DNA from: a virus
Taxonomy: Duplodnaviria; Heunggongvirae; Uroviricota; Caudoviricetes
IMG/VR virus record: IMGVR_UViG_2711768076_000016
DNA length: 29,766 nucleotides
Strand: one strand, 5' to 3'
In this document: positions 2,945 through 10,032 of the stretch, in pieces
Position numbering within the stretch: the first letter of the stretch is position 1
Layout: every line of letters starts with the position of its first letter
Notes under the pieces: model-generated
What the model was told of the DNA's origin: nothing
Database searches by the model: none
The model's input: only the letters and a program-made list of their open reading frames with translations
Program-made: the position numbers and the translations under genes

Positions 2945-3052
2945 TTAATGAATTAGTTATAATTACATCAATTCTATGGCTGCCAAATGGTGGCCTTTTT
3001 TATTCCTCTCATTTCTATTTCTGAGAGGACTCACTGCAATAAGAGGTGGCTA

Positions 3053-3439
3053 ATGTCCGATCCGATTTCCGGCACAGGGTTAGCTGGTGGAGCCCTAACG
3101 GGCGCTAGTATTTATGGACTGCTGACCGGAACTGATTACGGCGTTGTATTTGGCGCATTTGCAGGGGCTGTATTCTACATAGCAACAGCAGCAGATCTGA
3201 GTGCATCGCGCCGACTAGCATATTTTATCGTGTCATATATTGCCGGGATCCTTTGCTCTGGGTTGGTTGGCTCCAAGCTGGCGAACTTGACCGGATACAG
3301 TGATAAACCTCTGGATGCTATTGGTGCCGTAATCGTCTCTGCTTTAGCCGTTAAAATCCTGACGTTCCTGAATAATCAGGATATCGGCTCGCTGGTGGCG
3401 CTCATAACGCGCCGGGGAGGTTCAGGTGGAGCTAAATGA
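3053..3439 (+). CDS. Putative holin (about 128 aa, multiple TM segments)
   Basis: ORF 2987..3439; likely start is ATG 3053 with a GAGGTGG Shine-Dalgarno. Gly/Ala-rich hydrophobic helices; sits directly upstream of the endolysin. Confidence 0.5.
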   Translation: MSDPISGTGLAGGALTGASIYGLLTGTDYGVVFGAFAGAVFYIATAADLSASRRLAYFIVSYIAGILCSGLVGSKLANLTGYSDKPLDAIGAVIVSALAVKILTFLNNQDIGSLVALITRRGGSGGAK

Positions 3440-3707
3440 CCCGACAGCAACTATAAATGCGCTGTTATGTGCTTGTGTTGTTATTACTCTGATGTTTTAT
3501 CGTCGTGGCGACTCCAGACATCGACCGTGGATATCTCGCTTAGCGTGGCTGCTTACGGTCATTTATAGCGCCGTACCGCTGGCGTATCTGTGCGGTATCT
3601 ACCCTTATTCATCGTGGGCCACTATCGTGGCCAACATTATTTTCCTGTCCGTGCTGGTCGCCGTCAGAGGCAATGTGGCACGTCTGGTTGACCATCTGAG
3701 GCACTAA
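3426..3707 (+). CDS. Small membrane protein, second holin or antiholin candidate (93 aa)
   Basis: GTG start 5 nt after GGAGG; two to three hydrophobic helices; translationally coupled to the endolysin (TAATG overlap at 3705-3709). Confidence 0.45.
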   Translation: MELNDPTATINALLCACVVITLMFYRRGDSRHRPWISRLAWLLTVIYSAVPLAYLCGIYPYSSWATIVANIIFLSVLVAVRGNVARLVDHLRH

Positions 3708-4321
3708 TGAACCAATCACAATTTCAGCAGGCGGCTGGTATCAGCGCCGATGTTTCTGCACGCTGGTTTCCGCACATTGATGCGGCAATGAAAGAGTTTG
3801 GTATTACAGCAGTTAATGATCAGGCCATGTTCATTGCACAAGTCGGGCATGAGTCTGCAGGATTTACTTCGCTGGCAGAGAGTTTTAACTACTCGGTTGA
3901 AGGGCTGAAGAAAACCTTTGGTAAGCGTCTGACGCCGTACCAGTGCGAAATGCTGGGGCGTGTCGATGGTAAACAGGTCGCTCACCAGCCGCAAATAGCC
4001 AATCTGGTTTACGGTGACCGCATGGGGAATAACAGCCAGGGTGACGGCTGGAAATATCGCGGTCGTGGCCTGCTTCAAATTACTGGCCGTGAGAACTACA
4101 CCAAATGTGGTGCGGCGCTGAAACTTGACCTTGTCAATACACCAGAATTGCTAACGCAGGAGCGACATGCGGCCCGTTCGGCGGCGTGGTACTTCACGTT
4201 ACGCGGTTGCTTGATGTATTCGGGTGACGTGGAACGTGTAACGCAGATTATTAACGGCGGACAGAATGGCATTAAAGACCGCCGTGAACGTTACGCCAAA
4301 GCAAAAGCCGCACTGGTATGA
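3707..4321 (+). CDS. Endolysin, glycoside hydrolase family 19 (chitinase-like lysozyme)
   Basis: 204-aa ORF with a GHESAGF motif and overall resemblance to GH19 phage endolysins; located between the holin-like genes and the spanins. Confidence 0.7.
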   Translation: MNQSQFQQAAGISADVSARWFPHIDAAMKEFGITAVNDQAMFIAQVGHESAGFTSLAESFNYSVEGLKKTFGKRLTPYQCEMLGRVDGKQVAHQPQIANLVYGDRMGNNSQGDGWKYRGRGLLQITGRENYTKCGAALKLDLVNTPELLTQERHAARSAAWYFTLRGCLMYSGDVERVTQIINGGQNGIKDRRERYAKAKAALV

Positions 4322-4328
4322 GGTCACT

Positions 4329-4598
4329 ATGGGACTTGAAATGATTATCGGCCTGGTTGTTGCTGTGCTGGCTGCAATTGCAGGTGCTTTTGGTCTGGGT
4401 AAATCACGCGGTACAAGTATCGCAGAAACAAAAGCGGACCAGCAACGCACTGAAGAACGTGCAGCTGCTACTGAAGCCGTTGCAGAACGTAGGGTAGAGA
4501 CAACAAAAGGAGCCTGGGATGTACAGCAGACTGTTAATCATCTACCTGATGACGATGTTGACCGTGAGTTGCGCGAAAACTTTACCCGCAAAACCTGA
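4329..4598 (+). CDS. Rz-like i-spanin
   Basis: ORF 4266..4598; likely start is the Met at 4329. N-terminal TM helix (MIIGLVVAVLAAIAGAF) followed by a charged, Ala/Glu-rich periplasmic domain. Confidence 0.55.
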   Translation: MGLEMIIGLVVAVLAAIAGAFGLGKSRGTSIAETKADQQRTEERAAATEAVAERRVETTKGAWDVQQTVNHLPDDDVDRELRENFTRKT

Positions 4599-4737
4599 AG
4601 TAACGGACACGGCCTGTGACTGGGTAAGAATCATCTACCTCACAGGTCAGGACATTGAAGTGCTGGATAAGCTTACGAAGCGGGATATTCTGGCACATAA
4701 CAAAGCAGTACAGCGCAACTGTATTAGCCAGTTATGA
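4519..4737 (+). CDS. Rz1-like o-spanin lipoprotein, overlapping the 3' end of the Rz-like gene in another frame
   Basis: 72-aa ORF with signal peptide and lipobox (LTVSC); overlapping out-of-frame arrangement typical of Rz/Rz1 pairs. Confidence 0.5.
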   Translation: MYSRLLIIYLMTMLTVSCAKTLPAKPEVTDTACDWVRIIYLTGQDIEVLDKLTKRDILAHNKAVQRNCISQL

Positions 4738-4748
4738 GGCAAACGAGA

Positions 4749-4771
4749 TTGCGGGCAATTATCGCCCGCAA
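4749..4771. terminator. Hairpin between convergent genes (candidate bidirectional terminator)
   Basis: Stem TTGCGGGC / GCCCGCAA with loop AATTATC; lies between the Rz1-like stop (4737) and the stop of the minus-strand ORF (4780). Confidence 0.4.
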
Positions 4772-4779
4772 TAAAGTTA

Positions 4780-5196
4780 TCAATTATCTCCTTTAAAGGA
4801 GTCGTATTCACCCCAATCAGCAAACCCAATCGGTCTTTTAGGGGTCTCTAAGCATAAGCGTTTTTTTCGGATTAGCAGGACATTTATTTGAGATACATGC
4901 TGAACAAGTTCTACAGGACTGCCATCCTCCAGAGTACCAATGAAAGAAATTAATGATGGATTCCAGTAGCTTATGTCTGTGAAATGAAATTCAATGTTTT
5001 TACCAAAGCTAGCTAGTTGTCCTCCTACCTCATACTCTTCTTCAAGTTCACGGTGAAAATCATTTATCCAGCATATAAGGCGTCTATGAAATTCATTTGC
5101 AAGATTGTAGTCCTTTGGAACATATGGCTGTGAGTATTTGAGGAAATCATTCATGTAGTTATTTGTCATCAGGGCGTCCTTTACGAGCATAACCAT
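4780..5196 (-). CDS. Hypothetical protein (up to 138 aa) on the opposite strand; moron at the position lambda uses for bor
   Basis: Minus-strand ORF, AT-rich, between the lysis cassette and the packaging genes. Start uncertain (in-frame Met codons at 5196, 5169 and 5154). No similarity to Bor noted. Confidence 0.45.
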   Translation of the reverse strand: MVMLVKDALMTNNYMNDFLKYSQPYVPKDYNLANEFHRRLICWINDFHRELEEEYEVGGQLASFGKNIEFHFTDISYWNPSLISFIGTLEDGSPVELVQHVSQINVLLIRKKRLCLETPKRPIGFADWGEYDSFKGDN

Positions 5197-5267
5197 TGTT
5201 ACTTAACGGATTGAAACGCTATTAAATAACATGGTTTCTATCATAATTTCTATCCGGAGTTTTCCAT

Positions 5268-5618
5268 ATGCCGCCACGAATCCCAAAAGCCTGCCGTGTT
5301 CGCGGCTGCCGTTCTACCACTACAGATCCGTCAGGCTACTGCGAAAATCATAAAGGTGAGGGCTGGAAATCCTACAAGCCAGGTCAATCACGGCAGCAGC
5401 GCGGATATGGAACAAAGTGGGAAGTCATCCGGGAGCGGATACTAAAGCGCGACAAAGGGTTATGTCAGAACCATCTTCGGCAGGGAGTTGTGAAGCAAGC
5501 GTCCTGCGTGGACCACCTCAAGGCGAAGGCTCACGGCGGCACTGATGAAGACAGCAACCTTGAGAGTCTGTGCTGGTCGTGTCACGCAGTGAAGACCGCG
5601 CGTGAGCGGTTCAGGTGA
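5268..5618 (+). CDS. HNH endonuclease (terminase-associated)
   Basis: 116-aa ORF with Cys-rich N-terminus and HNH-like motifs (CVDH...HGG...N...CWSCH); directly upstream of the terminase genes. Confidence 0.7.
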   Translation: MPPRIPKACRVRGCRSTTTDPSGYCENHKGEGWKSYKPGQSRQQRGYGTKWEVIRERILKRDKGLCQNHLRQGVVKQASCVDHLKAKAHGGTDEDSNLESLCWSCHAVKTARERFR

Positions 5619-5735
5619 GAATTGATGTCATCATCAGCCAGGGGAGGGGGAGGTCGAATCTTTGCAACCGCGCGCCTTCCGGACTGCCCGCCCCATCGTT
5701 TTTTTATACCCGCGAAAAATGAAATTTAACCAGGA

Positions 5736-6239
5736 GTGCCGCATATGGCTGGAACGGCGGGGCGTTCCGGGCGTCGCCCCAAGCCAACGGCGCGCAAGGC
5801 GCTGGCCGGAAACCCCGGCAAGCGAGCCCTGAATAAAGATGAACCTGTTTTTACGCCCATCAAAGGTGTTGAGCCACCGGAGTGGTTCGCTGAAGAAGAT
5901 CTCCCTCTCGCCACGATCATGTGGCAACTGACAACTAAAGAACTCTGCGGTCAGGGCCTGCTGTGCGTGACTGACCTCGCAGTGCTTGAGCGGTGGTGTG
6001 TGGCCTATGAGTTCTGGCGACGTGCCGTGAAAAATATTGCCAGACAGGGCAACACCATCACCGGTGCAATGGGCGGTATGGTCAAAAATCCGGAGCTGAC
6101 CGCCAAAAAAGAACAGGAGTCCGAGATGAGCAGTACGGGGGCAATGCTCGGACTCGACCCCAGCAGCCGCCAGCGTCTGATTGGCCTGGCGGGGAAGAAG
6201 AAAGCCACTAACCCGTTTCTGAAAATCATCGAATCATGA
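5736..6239 (+). CDS. Terminase small subunit (P27-family-like)
   Basis: 167-aa ORF immediately upstream of, and overlapping, the large terminase gene (ATGA overlap at 6236); size and position fit a small terminase. Confidence 0.65.
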
Positions 6240-7969
6240 GCCGGAAATCTTACCCCAACGTAAATGCTGCCAATCAGTATGCCCGTGATGTCGTGCGCGG
6301 AAAGATTGTGGCCTGCCAGTTTGTGATTCAGGCCTGCCAGCGGCATCTTGATGACCTGATGGCGGAAAAAAGTAAGTCGTTTCGTTACCGCTTCGACAAG
6401 GACCTGGCTGAACGGGCCGCTAAATTTATTCAGCTGTTGCCGCACACCAAGGGTGAGTGGGCATTTAAGAGGATGCCCATCACGCTGGAGCTGTGGCAGC
6501 TCTTTGTGATCTGCTGCGCGTTTGGCTGGGTCAATAAAGGCTCCCGGCTGCGCCGCTTCCGTGAGGTGTATACCGAAATCCCCCGTAAGAACGGCAAATC
6601 GGCAATCTCTGCCGGTGTCGCCCTGTATTGTTTTGCCTGTGATAACGAGTTCGGCGCGGAAGTGTATTCCGGTGCCACGACGGAGAAACAGGCATGGGAA
6701 GTCTTTCGTCCGGCAAGACTGATGTGTAAACGCACACCCATGCTGACGGAAGCGTTCGGGATTGAGGTTAACGCCTCAAACATGAACCGTCCGGAGGATG
6801 GTGCGCGTTTTGAACCGCTGATCGGTAACCCCGGTGATGGTTCATCACCCCACTGTGCGGTGGTGGATGAATATCACGAGCACGCCACCGATGCGCTTTA
6901 CACCACGATGCTTACCGGGATGGGGGCGCGACGTCAGCCACTGATGTGGGCCATTACTACTGCCGGGTACAACATTGAGGGGCCGTGCTACGACAAGCGG
7001 CGGGAAGTTATCGAGATGCTCAACGGGTCGGTACCCAACGATGAACTGTTCGGGATCATCTATACCGTTGACGAAGGCGATGACTGGACCGACCCGCAGG
7101 TGCTGGAAAAAGCCAATCCAAATATTGGCGTGTCGGTTTATCGCGAATTTTTGTTAAGTCAGCAGCAGCGTGCGAAAAATAACGCCCGTCTGGCAAACGT
7201 CTTTAAAACAAAACACCTCAATATCTGGGTGTCGGCGCGTTCGGCGTATTTCAATCTGGTGAGCTGGCAGAGCTGCGAGGATAAATCACTGACCCTTGAG
7301 CAGTTCGAGGGGCAGCCGTGCATTCTGGCCTTTGACCTGGCGCGTAAGCTGGATATGAACAGTATGGCGCGACTTTATACCCGCGAGATTGACGGTAAAA
7401 CGCATTACTACAGTGTGGCCCCGCGTTTCTGGGTACCGTATGACACGGTGTACAGCGTCGAGAAAAATGAAGATCGACGGACAGCCGAACGCTTTCAGAA
7501 ATGGGTGGAAATGGGCGTTCTGACCGTTACCGATGGTGCGGAGGTGGATTATCGCTACATCCTCGAGGAGGCCAAAGCGGCGAACAAAATCAGCCCGGTC
7601 AGTGAGTCACCCATCGACCCCTTCGGGGCGACCGGGTTGTCACATGACCTTGCTGATGAAGACCTGAACCCCATCACTATCATTCAGAACTACACCAACA
7701 TGTCCGACCCGATGAAAGAGCTGGAAGCGGCAATTGAATCGGGGCGCTTTCATCATGATGGCAATCCCATCATGACCTGGTGTATCGGCAACGTGGTCGG
7801 CAAAACCATTCCGGGTAACGATGATGTGGTGAAGCCCGTCAAAGAGCAGGCGGAAAACAAAATCGATGGTGCAGTTGCGCTGATTATGGCGGTTGGCAGA
7901 GCCATGCTGTACGAGAAAGAAGACACGCTGTCTGACCACATTGAGTCCTATGGGATCCGCTCGCTTTAA
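6236..7969 (+). CDS. Terminase large subunit
   Basis: 577-aa ORF with a P-loop (PRKNGKS) and the expected position before the portal gene. Confidence 0.85.
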
Positions 7970-8163: not shown

Positions 8164-9404
8164 TGTTCTTTTCGGGATTATTTCAACGAAAAAGTGACGC
8201 ACCGGTGACCACGCCAGCAGAGCTGGCGGATGCTATCGGGTTGTCCTACGACACCTATACCGGAAAGCAGATCAGCAGCCAGCGGGCCATGCGACTGACG
8301 GCGGTTTTTTCCTGTGTCAGGGTGCTGGCGGAGTCGGTCGGGATGTTGCCCTGCAACCTGTATCACCTGAACGGCAGCCTGAAGCAGAGAGCCACTGGCG
8401 AACGTCTGCATAAGCTGATCTCCACGCATCCCAATGGCTATATGACGCCGCAGGAGTTCTGGGAGCTGGTGGTCACCTGTCTGTGTCTGCGGGGAAACTT
8501 TTACGCCTACAAAGTGAAAGCATTTGGCGAAGTGGCTGAACTGCTGCCCGTCGATCCCGGCTGTGTGGTACCGAAGCTTAACAGTAGCTGGGAGCCGGTC
8601 TATCAGGTCACATTCCCGGATGGCTCCACGGATGTACTGAGCCAGGAGGATATCTGGCATGTGCGCACGCTGACGCTGGACGGACTGGTGGGGCTGAATC
8701 CCATCGCCTATGCCCGCGAGGCAATATCGCTGGCGGCAGCGACCGAAGAGCACGGGGCCAGACTGTTCAGCAATGGCGCGGTGACGTCGGGTGTGTTGCG
8801 TACAGAGCAGACGCTGTCAGATCAGGCTTATGAGCGCCTGAAGAAAGATTTTGAGGAGCGTCACACCGGGCTTGGCAATGCTCACCGCCCGATGATCCTT
8901 GAGATGGGGCTGGACTGGAAGTCGATGGCGCTGAACGCCGAGGACAGCCAGTTCCTGGAAACCCGCAAGTTTCAGCTTGAAGAAATCTGTCGTCTGTTCC
9001 GGGTGCCGTTGCACATGGTGCAGAACACCGATCGCGCCACCTTCAACAATATCGAAGAGCTGGGGCTGGGATTTATCAACTATTCACTGGTGCCGTATCT
9101 GACCCGCATCGAACAGCGGATCAACACCGGACTGGTACGAAAAAGTAAGCAGGGCGTTTATTACGCCAAATTTAACGCCGGGGCGTTACTGCGCGGGGAT
9201 ATGAAGTCCCGTTTTGAAGCCTACGCCACCGGGATCAACTGGGGAATTTACTCTCCCAATGACTGCCGCGACCTGGAAGATATGAATCCGCGTCCCGGTG
9301 GTGATGTCTATCTCACACCGATGAACATGACCACGAAGCCCTCCGATGGCAGTAAAGCCGGTAAGCAGAAGGATAACGCCAATGCAGACGAAACAACGTC
9401 TTGA
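8163..9404 (+). CDS. Portal protein (HK97 family)
   Basis: 413-aa ORF following the large terminase; size and order match HK97-type portals. Confidence 0.75.
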   Translation: MFFSGLFQRKSDAPVTTPAELADAIGLSYDTYTGKQISSQRAMRLTAVFSCVRVLAESVGMLPCNLYHLNGSLKQRATGERLHKLISTHPNGYMTPQEFWELVVTCLCLRGNFYAYKVKAFGEVAELLPVDPGCVVPKLNSSWEPVYQVTFPDGSTDVLSQEDIWHVRTLTLDGLVGLNPIAYAREAISLAAATEEHGARLFSNGAVTSGVLRTEQTLSDQAYERLKKDFEERHTGLGNAHRPMILEMGLDWKSMALNAEDSQFLETRKFQLEEICRLFRVPLHMVQNTDRATFNNIEELGLGFINYSLVPYLTRIEQRINTGLVRKSKQGVYYAKFNAGALLRGDMKSRFEAYATGINWGIYSPNDCRDLEDMNPRPGGDVYLTPMNMTTKPSDGSKAGKQKDNANADETTS

Positions 9405-10032
9405 TGTACCGCTGAGTCTGAAATCTGTCAGTGACTCCGGTGAGTTTGAAGGGTATGGCTCCGTCTTTGGTGTAAAGGACAGCCACGATGATGTGGTGAT
9501 GTCCGGGGCATTTGCTGCTTCCCTGCGGGCGTGGAGTGACAGAAAAGCGTTACCTGCGCTGCTCTGGCAGCACCGCATGGATGAACCCATCGGTGTTTAC
9601 ACCGAAATGAAGGAAGACGATGTCGGGCTTTACGTCAGGGGACGGTTGCTTATTGATGATGATCCCCTCGCAAAACGCGCACATGCACACATGAAGGCCG
9701 GTTCGTTAACCGGCCTTTCTATTGGGTACGTCCTGAAAGACTGGGAATATGACCGGAGCAAAGAAGCCTTTCTGCTGAAAGAAATCGACCTCTGGGAAGT
9801 CAGCCTGGTGACGTTCCCGTCTAACGACGAGGCGCGGATCAGCGACGTCAAGAACGCACAGGCCCGCGGGGAAATCCCCGAACAGAAAAAAATCGAAAGA
9901 GTCCTGCGTGATGTCGGACTCTCCCGTACCCAGGCCAAAGCATTCATGGCCGGGGGCTATAGCGCACTGTCCCTGCGCGACGCTGAGGATGTGGGCTCTG
10001 CACTGAATGCACTGAAAAATCTGAACTTCTAA
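9382..10032 (+). CDS. Prohead maturation protease (HK97 family)
   Basis: ORF 9346..10032, with likely start at the Met at 9382; between portal and major capsid genes. Confidence 0.65.
   Translation: MQTKQRLDVPLSLKSVSDSGEFEGYGSVFGVKDSHDDVVMSGAFAASLRAWSDRKALPALLWQHRMDEPIGVYTEMKEDDVGLYVRGRLLIDDDPLAKRAHAHMKAGSLTGLSIGYVLKDWEYDRSKEAFLLKEIDLWEVSLVTFPSNDEARISDVKNAQARGEIPEQKKIERVLRDVGLSRTQAKAFMAGGYSALSLRDAEDVGSALNALKNLNF

Follow-up and report, generated by a model that had tools for sequence, protein, structure and literature searches.

The stretch of DNA analysed here (29,766 nucleotides, hereafter the window) belongs to a prophage that carries, antisense to its late operon and between the lysis and packaging genes, a gene for a small protein of the DUF6173 family. 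Morons are autonomous accessory cassettes in prophage operons, and this gene is very probably one of them. Taken as a whole, the data are best explained by an antisense moron cassette that is expressed in the lysogen and encodes a cytoplasmic binding protein with a protective role, an explanation that we put forward tentatively and at slightly less than an even chance.

Gene location and start codon

The gene stands among the following features, with positions counted in the window:

4266-4598, plus strand: Rz-like spanin (phrog_1026)
4519-4737, plus strand: Rz1-like spanin, embedded in or overlapping the Rz-like gene (phrog_1275)
4725-5315: mosaic segment that differs from the closest prophages without the gene, delimited by the breaks in homology to strains C3 and D2
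4748-4772: hairpin with an 11-bp stem and a 3-nt loop, between the convergent stops of the Rz1-like gene (4737) and the DUF6173 gene (4780)
4780-5196, minus strand: DUF6173 family gene, longest ORF (PF19670, E 3.8e-21; phrog_3306), with a conserved core at residues 31-128
4780-5169, minus strand: most likely CDS of the DUF6173 gene, 129 residues, identical to RefSeq WP_000184049.1, with its ATG at 5169-5167
5240-5267, minus strand: weak, putative sigma-70 promoter (-35 ATGGAA at 5267-5262, 16-nt spacer, -10 TATGAT at 5245-5240)
5268-5618, plus strand: HNH endonuclease (PF01844)
5736-6239, plus strand: small terminase of the P27 type (terS)
6236-7969, plus strand: large terminase (terL)

To the left of the spanins lie two holin-like ORFs and a GH19 endolysin gene (3707-4321). 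The initial annotation of this DNA had described an AT-rich antisense ORF of 138 residues between the spanins and the HNH and terminase genes, and both parts of that description hold. In its longest form the minus-strand ORF runs from an ATG at 5196 to 4780 and encodes 138 residues, its GC content is 0.38-0.40 as against 0.49-0.60 in the flanking late genes, and the neighbouring products match phrog_1026, phrog_1275 and PF01844. No plus-strand ORF of at least 40 codons overlaps 4780-5196, the nearest one beginning at 5231.

RefSeq begins the gene at the ATG at 5169, which gives a product of 129 residues, and this start is more likely than the one at 5196. The sequence AGGA at 5180-5177, 7 nt before the ATG at 5169, received the highest Shine-Dalgarno score of the four in-frame starts, and nothing comparable precedes the ATG at 5196. 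The N-terminal 30 or so residues are the sole portion of the family that is not conserved.

Family membership, distribution and selection

By its profile match the product is an established member of the DUF6173 family. It scores 75.8 bits against PF19670, where the gathering cut-off is 27 (E 3.8e-21, profile positions 16-101 of 102), and it also matches phrog_3306, which PHROG annotates as being of unknown function. The protein had initially been regarded as unassigned; this has to be corrected, for it matches a Pfam family and is labelled "DUF6173 family protein" in RefSeq. Set beside DUF6173, PHROG 3306 and WP_000184049.1, the window gene is a full member that differs in nothing. All 150 distant representatives of the family likewise match PF19670, and column counts over them show that the window protein carries every residue conserved family-wide, namely A33, F47, L51, E56, G58, L61, F64-G65, P80, L82, F85 and G87, followed in the C-terminal part by L97, Q99-H100, Q103, L108, P119 and G124-F125. 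DUF6173 was the sole Pfam match at E ≤ 1, and no Bor domain was found. No NCBIfam profile matched the protein, and PADLOC-DB v2 (the 2023 library, which predates newer systems) returned no family at E ≤ 1. The literature searched contains no mention of DUF6173, PF19670 or WP_000184049.

A number of complete E. coli chromosomes contain the same DNA at 100% identity and annotate the gene, within a prophage, as "DUF6173 family protein". Other genes of that prophage encode KilA-N and DUF968 proteins, a Q-like antiterminator, holins, a GH19 lysin and an HNH protein, together with a P27-type terS, terL, portal, HK97 protease and capsid. Beyond E. coli, a word-indexed search returned 160 clusters at 55-85% identity, from Klebsiella, Citrobacter, Serratia, Yersinia, Proteus, Pseudomonas, Aeromonas, Vibrio and others. 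A scan of genomes at the species level extended the family, at 45-80% identity, to Gamma-, Beta- and Deltaproteobacteria, Acidobacteria, Planctomycetes, Spirochaetes, Elusimicrobia and Firmicutes, and an exhaustive profile search at E ≤ 0.001 gave 1476 clusters (50% identity), of which 996 also passed E ≤ 1e-10.

Purifying selection on the gene is strong. When 25 distinct phage-borne copies were compared with the copy in the window, pS was saturated (0.68-0.98) and pN was 0.10-0.29, and in a codon-level comparison the median dN/dS was 0.08 where dS could be computed. The DUF6173 ORF is a real gene and not a chance ORF, because it combines a 75.8-bit PF19670 score with a low pN at saturated pS. 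The initial annotation had staked its case in part on conservation of the reading frame among relatives, and the frame is clearly conserved, since pN is low against saturated pS.

Predicted structure of the product

The protein is predicted to be soluble, acidic and cytoplasmic, with a pI of 5.1 and no hydrophobic segment (maximum Kyte-Doolittle value over 19 residues, 0.74). The lack of a signal peptide noted at the outset agrees with this profile, in which there is also no transmembrane segment. An AlphaFold2 model built from a 28-sequence alignment (pLDDT 82, pTM 0.72) places a disordered N-terminus at residues 1-22, a long helix at 32-50 and strands at 55-63, 66-78, 82-88, 94-100 and 107-112, with a short helical turn after the fourth strand. 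In its C-terminal part a well-ordered extended segment, which includes the conserved PK(R)PIGF, is followed by a short C-terminal helix. The model may be described as a helix with a five-stranded small beta-barrel of the SH3/Sm-like kind, a tentative assignment in view of fold matches that are weak and generic. On this assignment its nearest known counterparts would be the small beta-barrel binding domains of the SH3/Sm-like, WYL and KOW/Tudor kinds. Remote homology and structure prediction had been proposed as a check, and among solved and viral structures the outcome was negative: a sequence profile search of PDB gave no match at E ≤ 10, Foldseek against BFVD and PDB gave nothing at E ≤ 0.001, and the model thus has no significant match among the structures in these two sets.

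Among the 150 representatives, hydrophobic core residues and glycines account for most of the near-invariant positions. The conserved polar positions are E56 (89%), N79-P80-S81, Q99 (97%), H100 (94%), Q103 (99%) and K/R120, so that the family-wide polar signature reads E56, N79-P80-S81, Q99-H100-x-x-Q103; judged from conservation, these residues are the first candidates for a binding site. No recognisable catalytic domain was found in the protein.

The DUF6173 domain is always C-terminal, and longer members carry low-complexity, repeat-rich or proline-rich N-terminal extensions. An N-terminal helix-turn-helix of the XRE type distinguishes one lineage (proteins P0142, P0144 and the truncated P0159). 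Proteins of this lineage (L096 451-1845; L097 6001-7164) are 330-460 residues long, and the linker between the two domains consists of long tandem repeats, for example NPAMKL...DDAMRVAD. The gene for P0144 adjoins a PLD-family (PLDc_2) gene and that for P0142 adjoins restriction-modification and transposase genes. A fusion of Sigma70_r4 to DUF6173 (P0236) was discounted; its DUF6173 domain is cut in the middle of the barrel and the protein is probably a chimera or an artefact.

The insertion slot in E. coli prophages

Of 5426 complete E. coli genomes, 33 contain the cassette (4740-5267), in every case at 99% identity or more, and the adjacent lysis module was found in 107. The nearest prophages without the gene, those of strains C3 and D2, are 91-93% identical to the window over 3017-4724 and 5316-7000 only. 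The segment between these blocks, 4725-5315, comprises the last codons of the Rz1-like gene, the hairpin, the DUF6173 gene, its upstream spacer and the first 48 or so nucleotides of the HNH gene, and C3 and D2 have in its place 1 kb of DNA that carries two hypothetical genes on the plus strand. Small hypothetical genes occupy the same gap in strain ET5, IS911 and a hypothetical gene do so in SfII, and a different hypothetical gene does so in SfI. Among sequenced phages, resemblance to this part of the window is limited to the HNH region of SfI, SfII and SfIV, at about 75%.

Because the closest relatives without the gene hold different cargo here, the gap between Rz1 and HNH is, on these sequence comparisons, a variable moron slot. 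The presence or absence of the gene among related prophages had been suggested as a test, and its replacement by other cargo in C3, D2, ET5, SfI and SfII answers it. Two of the properties expected of a moron are seen: displacement by other cargo in relatives (C3 and D2 and four further relatives) and a deviating base composition (GC 0.38-0.40 vs 0.49-0.60).

In one lineage (L067 3304-6001; E. coli TW14425, H70 and H109) the DUF6173 gene is split by an insertion of about 2.7 kb, probably an IS element. Window positions 5033-5043 occur on both sides of it, an 11-bp overlap as for a target-site duplication. This is the sole disrupted copy seen among the 33 genomes.

The HNH gene (5268-5618) also contains recombination junctions. 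Homology to C3 and D2 resumes at 5316, and in about 20 E. coli genomes as well as in L053 and L055 identity to the window ends at 5407; two differing junctions within one gene indicate that the HNH gene is itself mosaic.

A second AT-rich cargo gene lies at 2138-2944 on the plus strand, between the Q antiterminator and the holins (GC 0.32-0.37, 268 residues). Its product belongs to phrog_30208 (E 8.5e-162), its C-terminal half is hydrophobic by eye, and it has no match in Pfam, PADLOC or NCBIfam. Since C3/D2 homology breaks at 3017, the region between Q and the holins is a second variable moron slot, which in relatives is filled by a DUF5677 gene or other hypothetical genes.

Transcription signals

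A strong hairpin had been noted between the ORF and the Rz1-like gene, and folding confirms it. The 42-nt gap between the stops at 4737 and 4780 is nearly filled by the hairpin, which lies 8 nt past the DUF6173 stop codon, and the 56-nt stretch that includes it folds at -19.5 kcal/mol (z = -4.1; none of 200 shuffled sequences folds as well). No U-tract follows it on either strand, and a terminator scan of 4400-5800 did not score it as an intrinsic terminator. A comparable 3′ hairpin (z ≤ -2) accompanies the gene in 26 of 44 homologous phage loci in IMG/VR.

A scan for canonical promoters over 4400-5800 found no sigma-70 site above threshold upstream of the gene. The candidate at 5240-5267, ATGGAA-16-TATGAT, agrees with the consensus at 8 of 12 positions and falls under the threshold of the scan. 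Two relatives (L056 and L059) have a 10/12 site, TTGAAA-16-TATTAT, upstream of their DUF6173 copy. No known RNA was found in the whole window by Rfam at gathering thresholds.

The cassette would accordingly be read as a spacer with a weak candidate promoter, a Shine-Dalgarno sequence, the 129-residue gene and, at its 3′ end, a hairpin, and it lies antisense within the late operon of an E. coli prophage that is SfI/SfII-like and HK97-headed. A promoter of its own within the spacer (5197-5267) would drive transcription in the lysogen, and this transcription would be shielded from, or opposed by, that of the late genes. Expression mainly in the lysogen is, on balance, the somewhat likelier state of affairs. 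The sub-threshold promoter candidate and the hairpin without a U-tract count against the explanation that we favour.

These same signals bear on the alternative that the cassette is functionless, hitch-hiking cargo in this prophage, a silent copy of a real family that could, for example, be silenced by H-NS as AT-rich DNA. The promoter candidate is weak, the cassette occurs in 33 of 5426 E. coli genomes, and one lineage has the 2.7-kb insertion. Against this, no other E. coli copy is disrupted and all of them reach 99% identity, strong purifying selection acts on the family, and the same slot has been occupied repeatedly in unrelated phages (see below), so that we regard silence as improbable.

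Recurrent placement in other phages

A scan of IMG/VR gave 46 loci, 44 of them with an intact DUF6173 copy; many are near-duplicates, and the counts that follow are therefore not counts of independent events. Both substantial neighbours lie on the opposite strand in 26 of the 44. By the labels of the neighbour clusters, a terminase or HNH gene is found on one side in 22 loci, a spanin or endolysin gene on the other side in 23, and both in 17. In 36 of the 44 the GC content of the gene falls short of that of its flanks by 5 points or more (mean, 9 points).

This arrangement spans three unrelated families of small terminase (phrog_51, phrog_1206 and the P27 type) as well as different large terminases, portals and sets of spanins and endolysins, and the similarity of these loci to the window at the DNA level is limited to the ORF. 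In three Proteus prophages an antisense DUF6173 gene lies between Terminase_2 and the lysis genes. One Proteus prophage (L101) also has, at 8933-9700 and upstream of the holins, a BstA-type defence gene (KilA-N plus BstA_C); with its antisense DUF6173 gene next to terS, it thus has two cargo slots filled.

Other placements were also seen. In P2-like phages, including Pseudoalteromonas phage C5a, DUF6173 is the last gene before the integrase gene and convergent with it. In the Clostridioides difficile phage phiCDKH02 it is antisense in the early region and co-directional with XRE/ImmA genes. Altogether 3 of 50,697 sequenced phage records carry DUF6173, none of them a virulent phage.

Copies outside phages

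DUF6173 is chiefly a resident of bacterial chromosomes and of temperate elements, not of virulent phages, and it was found on 11 of 72,556 plasmids. When the neighbours at 40 species-representative genome loci and 46 viral loci were clustered, no conserved neighbour gene emerged, and the 147 nearest neighbours were functionally heterogeneous in Pfam, PADLOC and PHROG scans. DUF6173 is a cargo that travels as one self-sufficient gene and is carried by mobile elements of many kinds.

Several distant copies adjoin housekeeping genes, such as ilvD and those for RNR, Lon and ThrRS. Together with conservation across phyla, such neighbours suggest a universal partner, and they make a serious rival of the proposal that the product is a regulatory or adaptor protein, whose barrel would bind nucleic acid or a conserved host regulator and modulate gene expression in the lysogen. 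The logic would be that of Sm/Hfq-, WYL- or Rof-like proteins, and the XRE-type fusions fit it; neither a profile match nor a significant structural match places the protein among the Sm/Hfq-like or WYL families. We consider such a role unlikely, although it is the strongest of the functional alternatives, the orphan-immunity and anti-defence roles described below being less likely.

In Vibrio, DUF6173 forms a single unit of an array whose small genes share one orientation and are separated by repeats of about 121-127 nt, an arrangement that in its repeat pattern is integron cassette-like. Genes of the DUF5677 family adjoin DUF6173 in the array (L106 5518-6327; L108 3535-4338), and a DUF5677 gene also occupies the slot between Q and the holins in an E. 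coli prophage (L043 1320-2180). DUF5677 is another uncharacterised family that behaves like DUF6173 as mobile cargo.

On small Acinetobacter plasmids DUF6173 directly adjoins an SMI1/KNR4 gene in one case and lies near BrnTA in another. The SMI1/KNR4 family is known for immunity proteins of polymorphic toxin systems. The product could then be an orphan, antitoxin-like immunity protein against a conserved toxin domain delivered by a competitor (a polymorphic toxin or bacteriocin) or encoded by a mobile element, as might also be said of a small, stand-alone cytoplasmic protein that travels on integron-type cassettes, plasmids and prophages with no partner gene. A toxin gene is never adjacent, however, and immunity proteins usually diversify fast, whereas DUF6173 keeps 45-85% identity across phyla at a dN/dS of about 0.08; the recurrent placement in late operons would also be left unexplained. 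This role seems to us distinctly unlikely, if slightly less so than a silent cassette.

In Pseudomonas oryzihabitans DUF6173 is flanked by a resolvase gene on one side and by a Pycsar system (PycC/PycTM) on the other, the latter followed by umuDC-like genes. A general link to Pycsar was rejected, the adjacency to PycC/PycTM being confined to one element of this species. The convergent Pycsar genes would suit a counter-immunity function, in which the protein, for instance, soaks up an immune signalling molecule like a sponge or inhibits a defence protein of the host. In keeping with this, it has a single domain, is small, highly conserved and widespread, and a small ligand could be bound by the conserved polar residues of its pocket. 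The distribution speaks against it. Of 50,697 sequenced phage records 3 contain the family, with no virulent phage among them, in most phage loci the gene opposes late transcription, and many chromosomal copies stand beside housekeeping genes, with Pycsar adjacent in a single element. Of the functions considered here anti-defence is the least probable.

In Methylophaga DUF6173 is preceded, at a distance of 91 nt and on its own strand, by a gene for an OLD-like ATPase (L008 5952-8396, L009, L013 and L014). The ATPase matches the models AAA_15/AAA_21 and, in PADLOC, AriA, GajA and Old. At least the 3′ part of the ATPase gene is present together with DUF6173 twice per genome, at 93% identity, and the pair may be a two-gene module confined to the genus. 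Enrichment of the family in defence islands was rejected, the four AAA_21/OLD-like matches being one Methylophaga module found twice in each of two MAGs; a single duplicated module shows no general association with defence. In a Spirochaetales MAG, DUF6173 lies between a restriction-modification methylase gene and the gene for a SIR2_2 protein.

Comparison with Bor and Tab

The locus had been likened at the outset to that of the lambda gene bor, and the lambda record bears this out, with bor on the opposite strand immediately after Rz/Rz1. The two genes share position and orientation relative to the late operon, and both are cargo in a variable slot. They differ in their products, Bor being an outer-membrane lipoprotein annotated for serum resistance. 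The initial annotation rightly held that the present protein does not resemble Bor: the window protein is cytoplasmic, with no Bor Pfam match, no signal peptide and no lipobox.

By architecture, the best analogue of the DUF6173 moron is Tab of Pseudomonas phage JBD26. The gene for Tab (83 residues) occupies the minus strand in the interval from terS to terL and has a promoter of its own (PMC10884400). The prophage expresses Tab constitutively, and the protein stops superinfecting phages from assembling their tails; this single-protein anti-phage defence is always paired with a plus-strand anti-Tab gene (PMC10884400). The likeness is one of architecture, that of a gene for a small protein on the minus strand of a late operon next to the terminase. 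The DUF6173 protein differs in having about 130 residues, in lying between the lysis genes and terS/HNH, and in having no conserved partner or antidote gene.

A possible role in the lysogen

The initial interpretation, that of an accessory gene that could act in immunity, anti-defence or exclusion, is partly supported as a whole. Under the antisense-moron explanation, the barrel would bind a conserved macromolecule or ligand, with no catalysis, and the lysogen would benefit, most plausibly because this one protein would keep out superinfecting phages or other invaders. A protective role of this kind, whether by exclusion, abortive infection or immunity, is a possibility that we rate as doubtful. 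Several observations weigh against it and against the explanation as a whole. Identities of 45-60% across phyla are unusually high for a phage-specific exclusion factor, and many distant homologues stand beside housekeeping genes. There is no match in PADLOC or NCBIfam and no self-immunity partner comparable to anti-Tab. Neighbourhoods that resemble defence loci are occasional (the OLD-like ATPase of Methylophaga, Pycsar in one species, SIR2 and restriction-modification genes in one MAG), and the fold matches are weak and generic, with no significant Foldseek match in PDB or BFVD.

A bolder proposal, unlikely as matters stand, is that DUF6173 would be an unrecognised single-protein mobile module of about 130 residues, spread across phyla, that guards the cell carrying it against phages and other mobile elements. 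The barrel would bind a universally conserved component, and the antisense placement would keep the gene on in the lysogen and off during the phage's own lytic growth.

Significance

As a feature of the genome this is an ordinary moron in a well-known variable slot, and its product already bears the label DUF6173 in RefSeq. What is new relative to the literature searched is the recurrent antisense placement between lysis and packaging genes, the integron-type capture as a single-gene cassette and the strong conservation of the family. DUF6173 comprises about 1500 clusters at 50% identity in many phyla, is under very strong purifying selection and always moves alone, accompanied by no partner gene. 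Lambdoid and P2-like prophages have acquired it independently, as have a Vibrio integron-type cassette array, a transposon-like element and small plasmids. Such behaviour has often marked genes that proved to serve in defence, immunity or addiction. DUF6173 is therefore a sensible candidate for a phage-challenge experiment rather than a surprise. If it does have such a function, it would be a very compact and easily tested module and, after Tab, another example of prophages timing a protective gene against their own lytic cycle.
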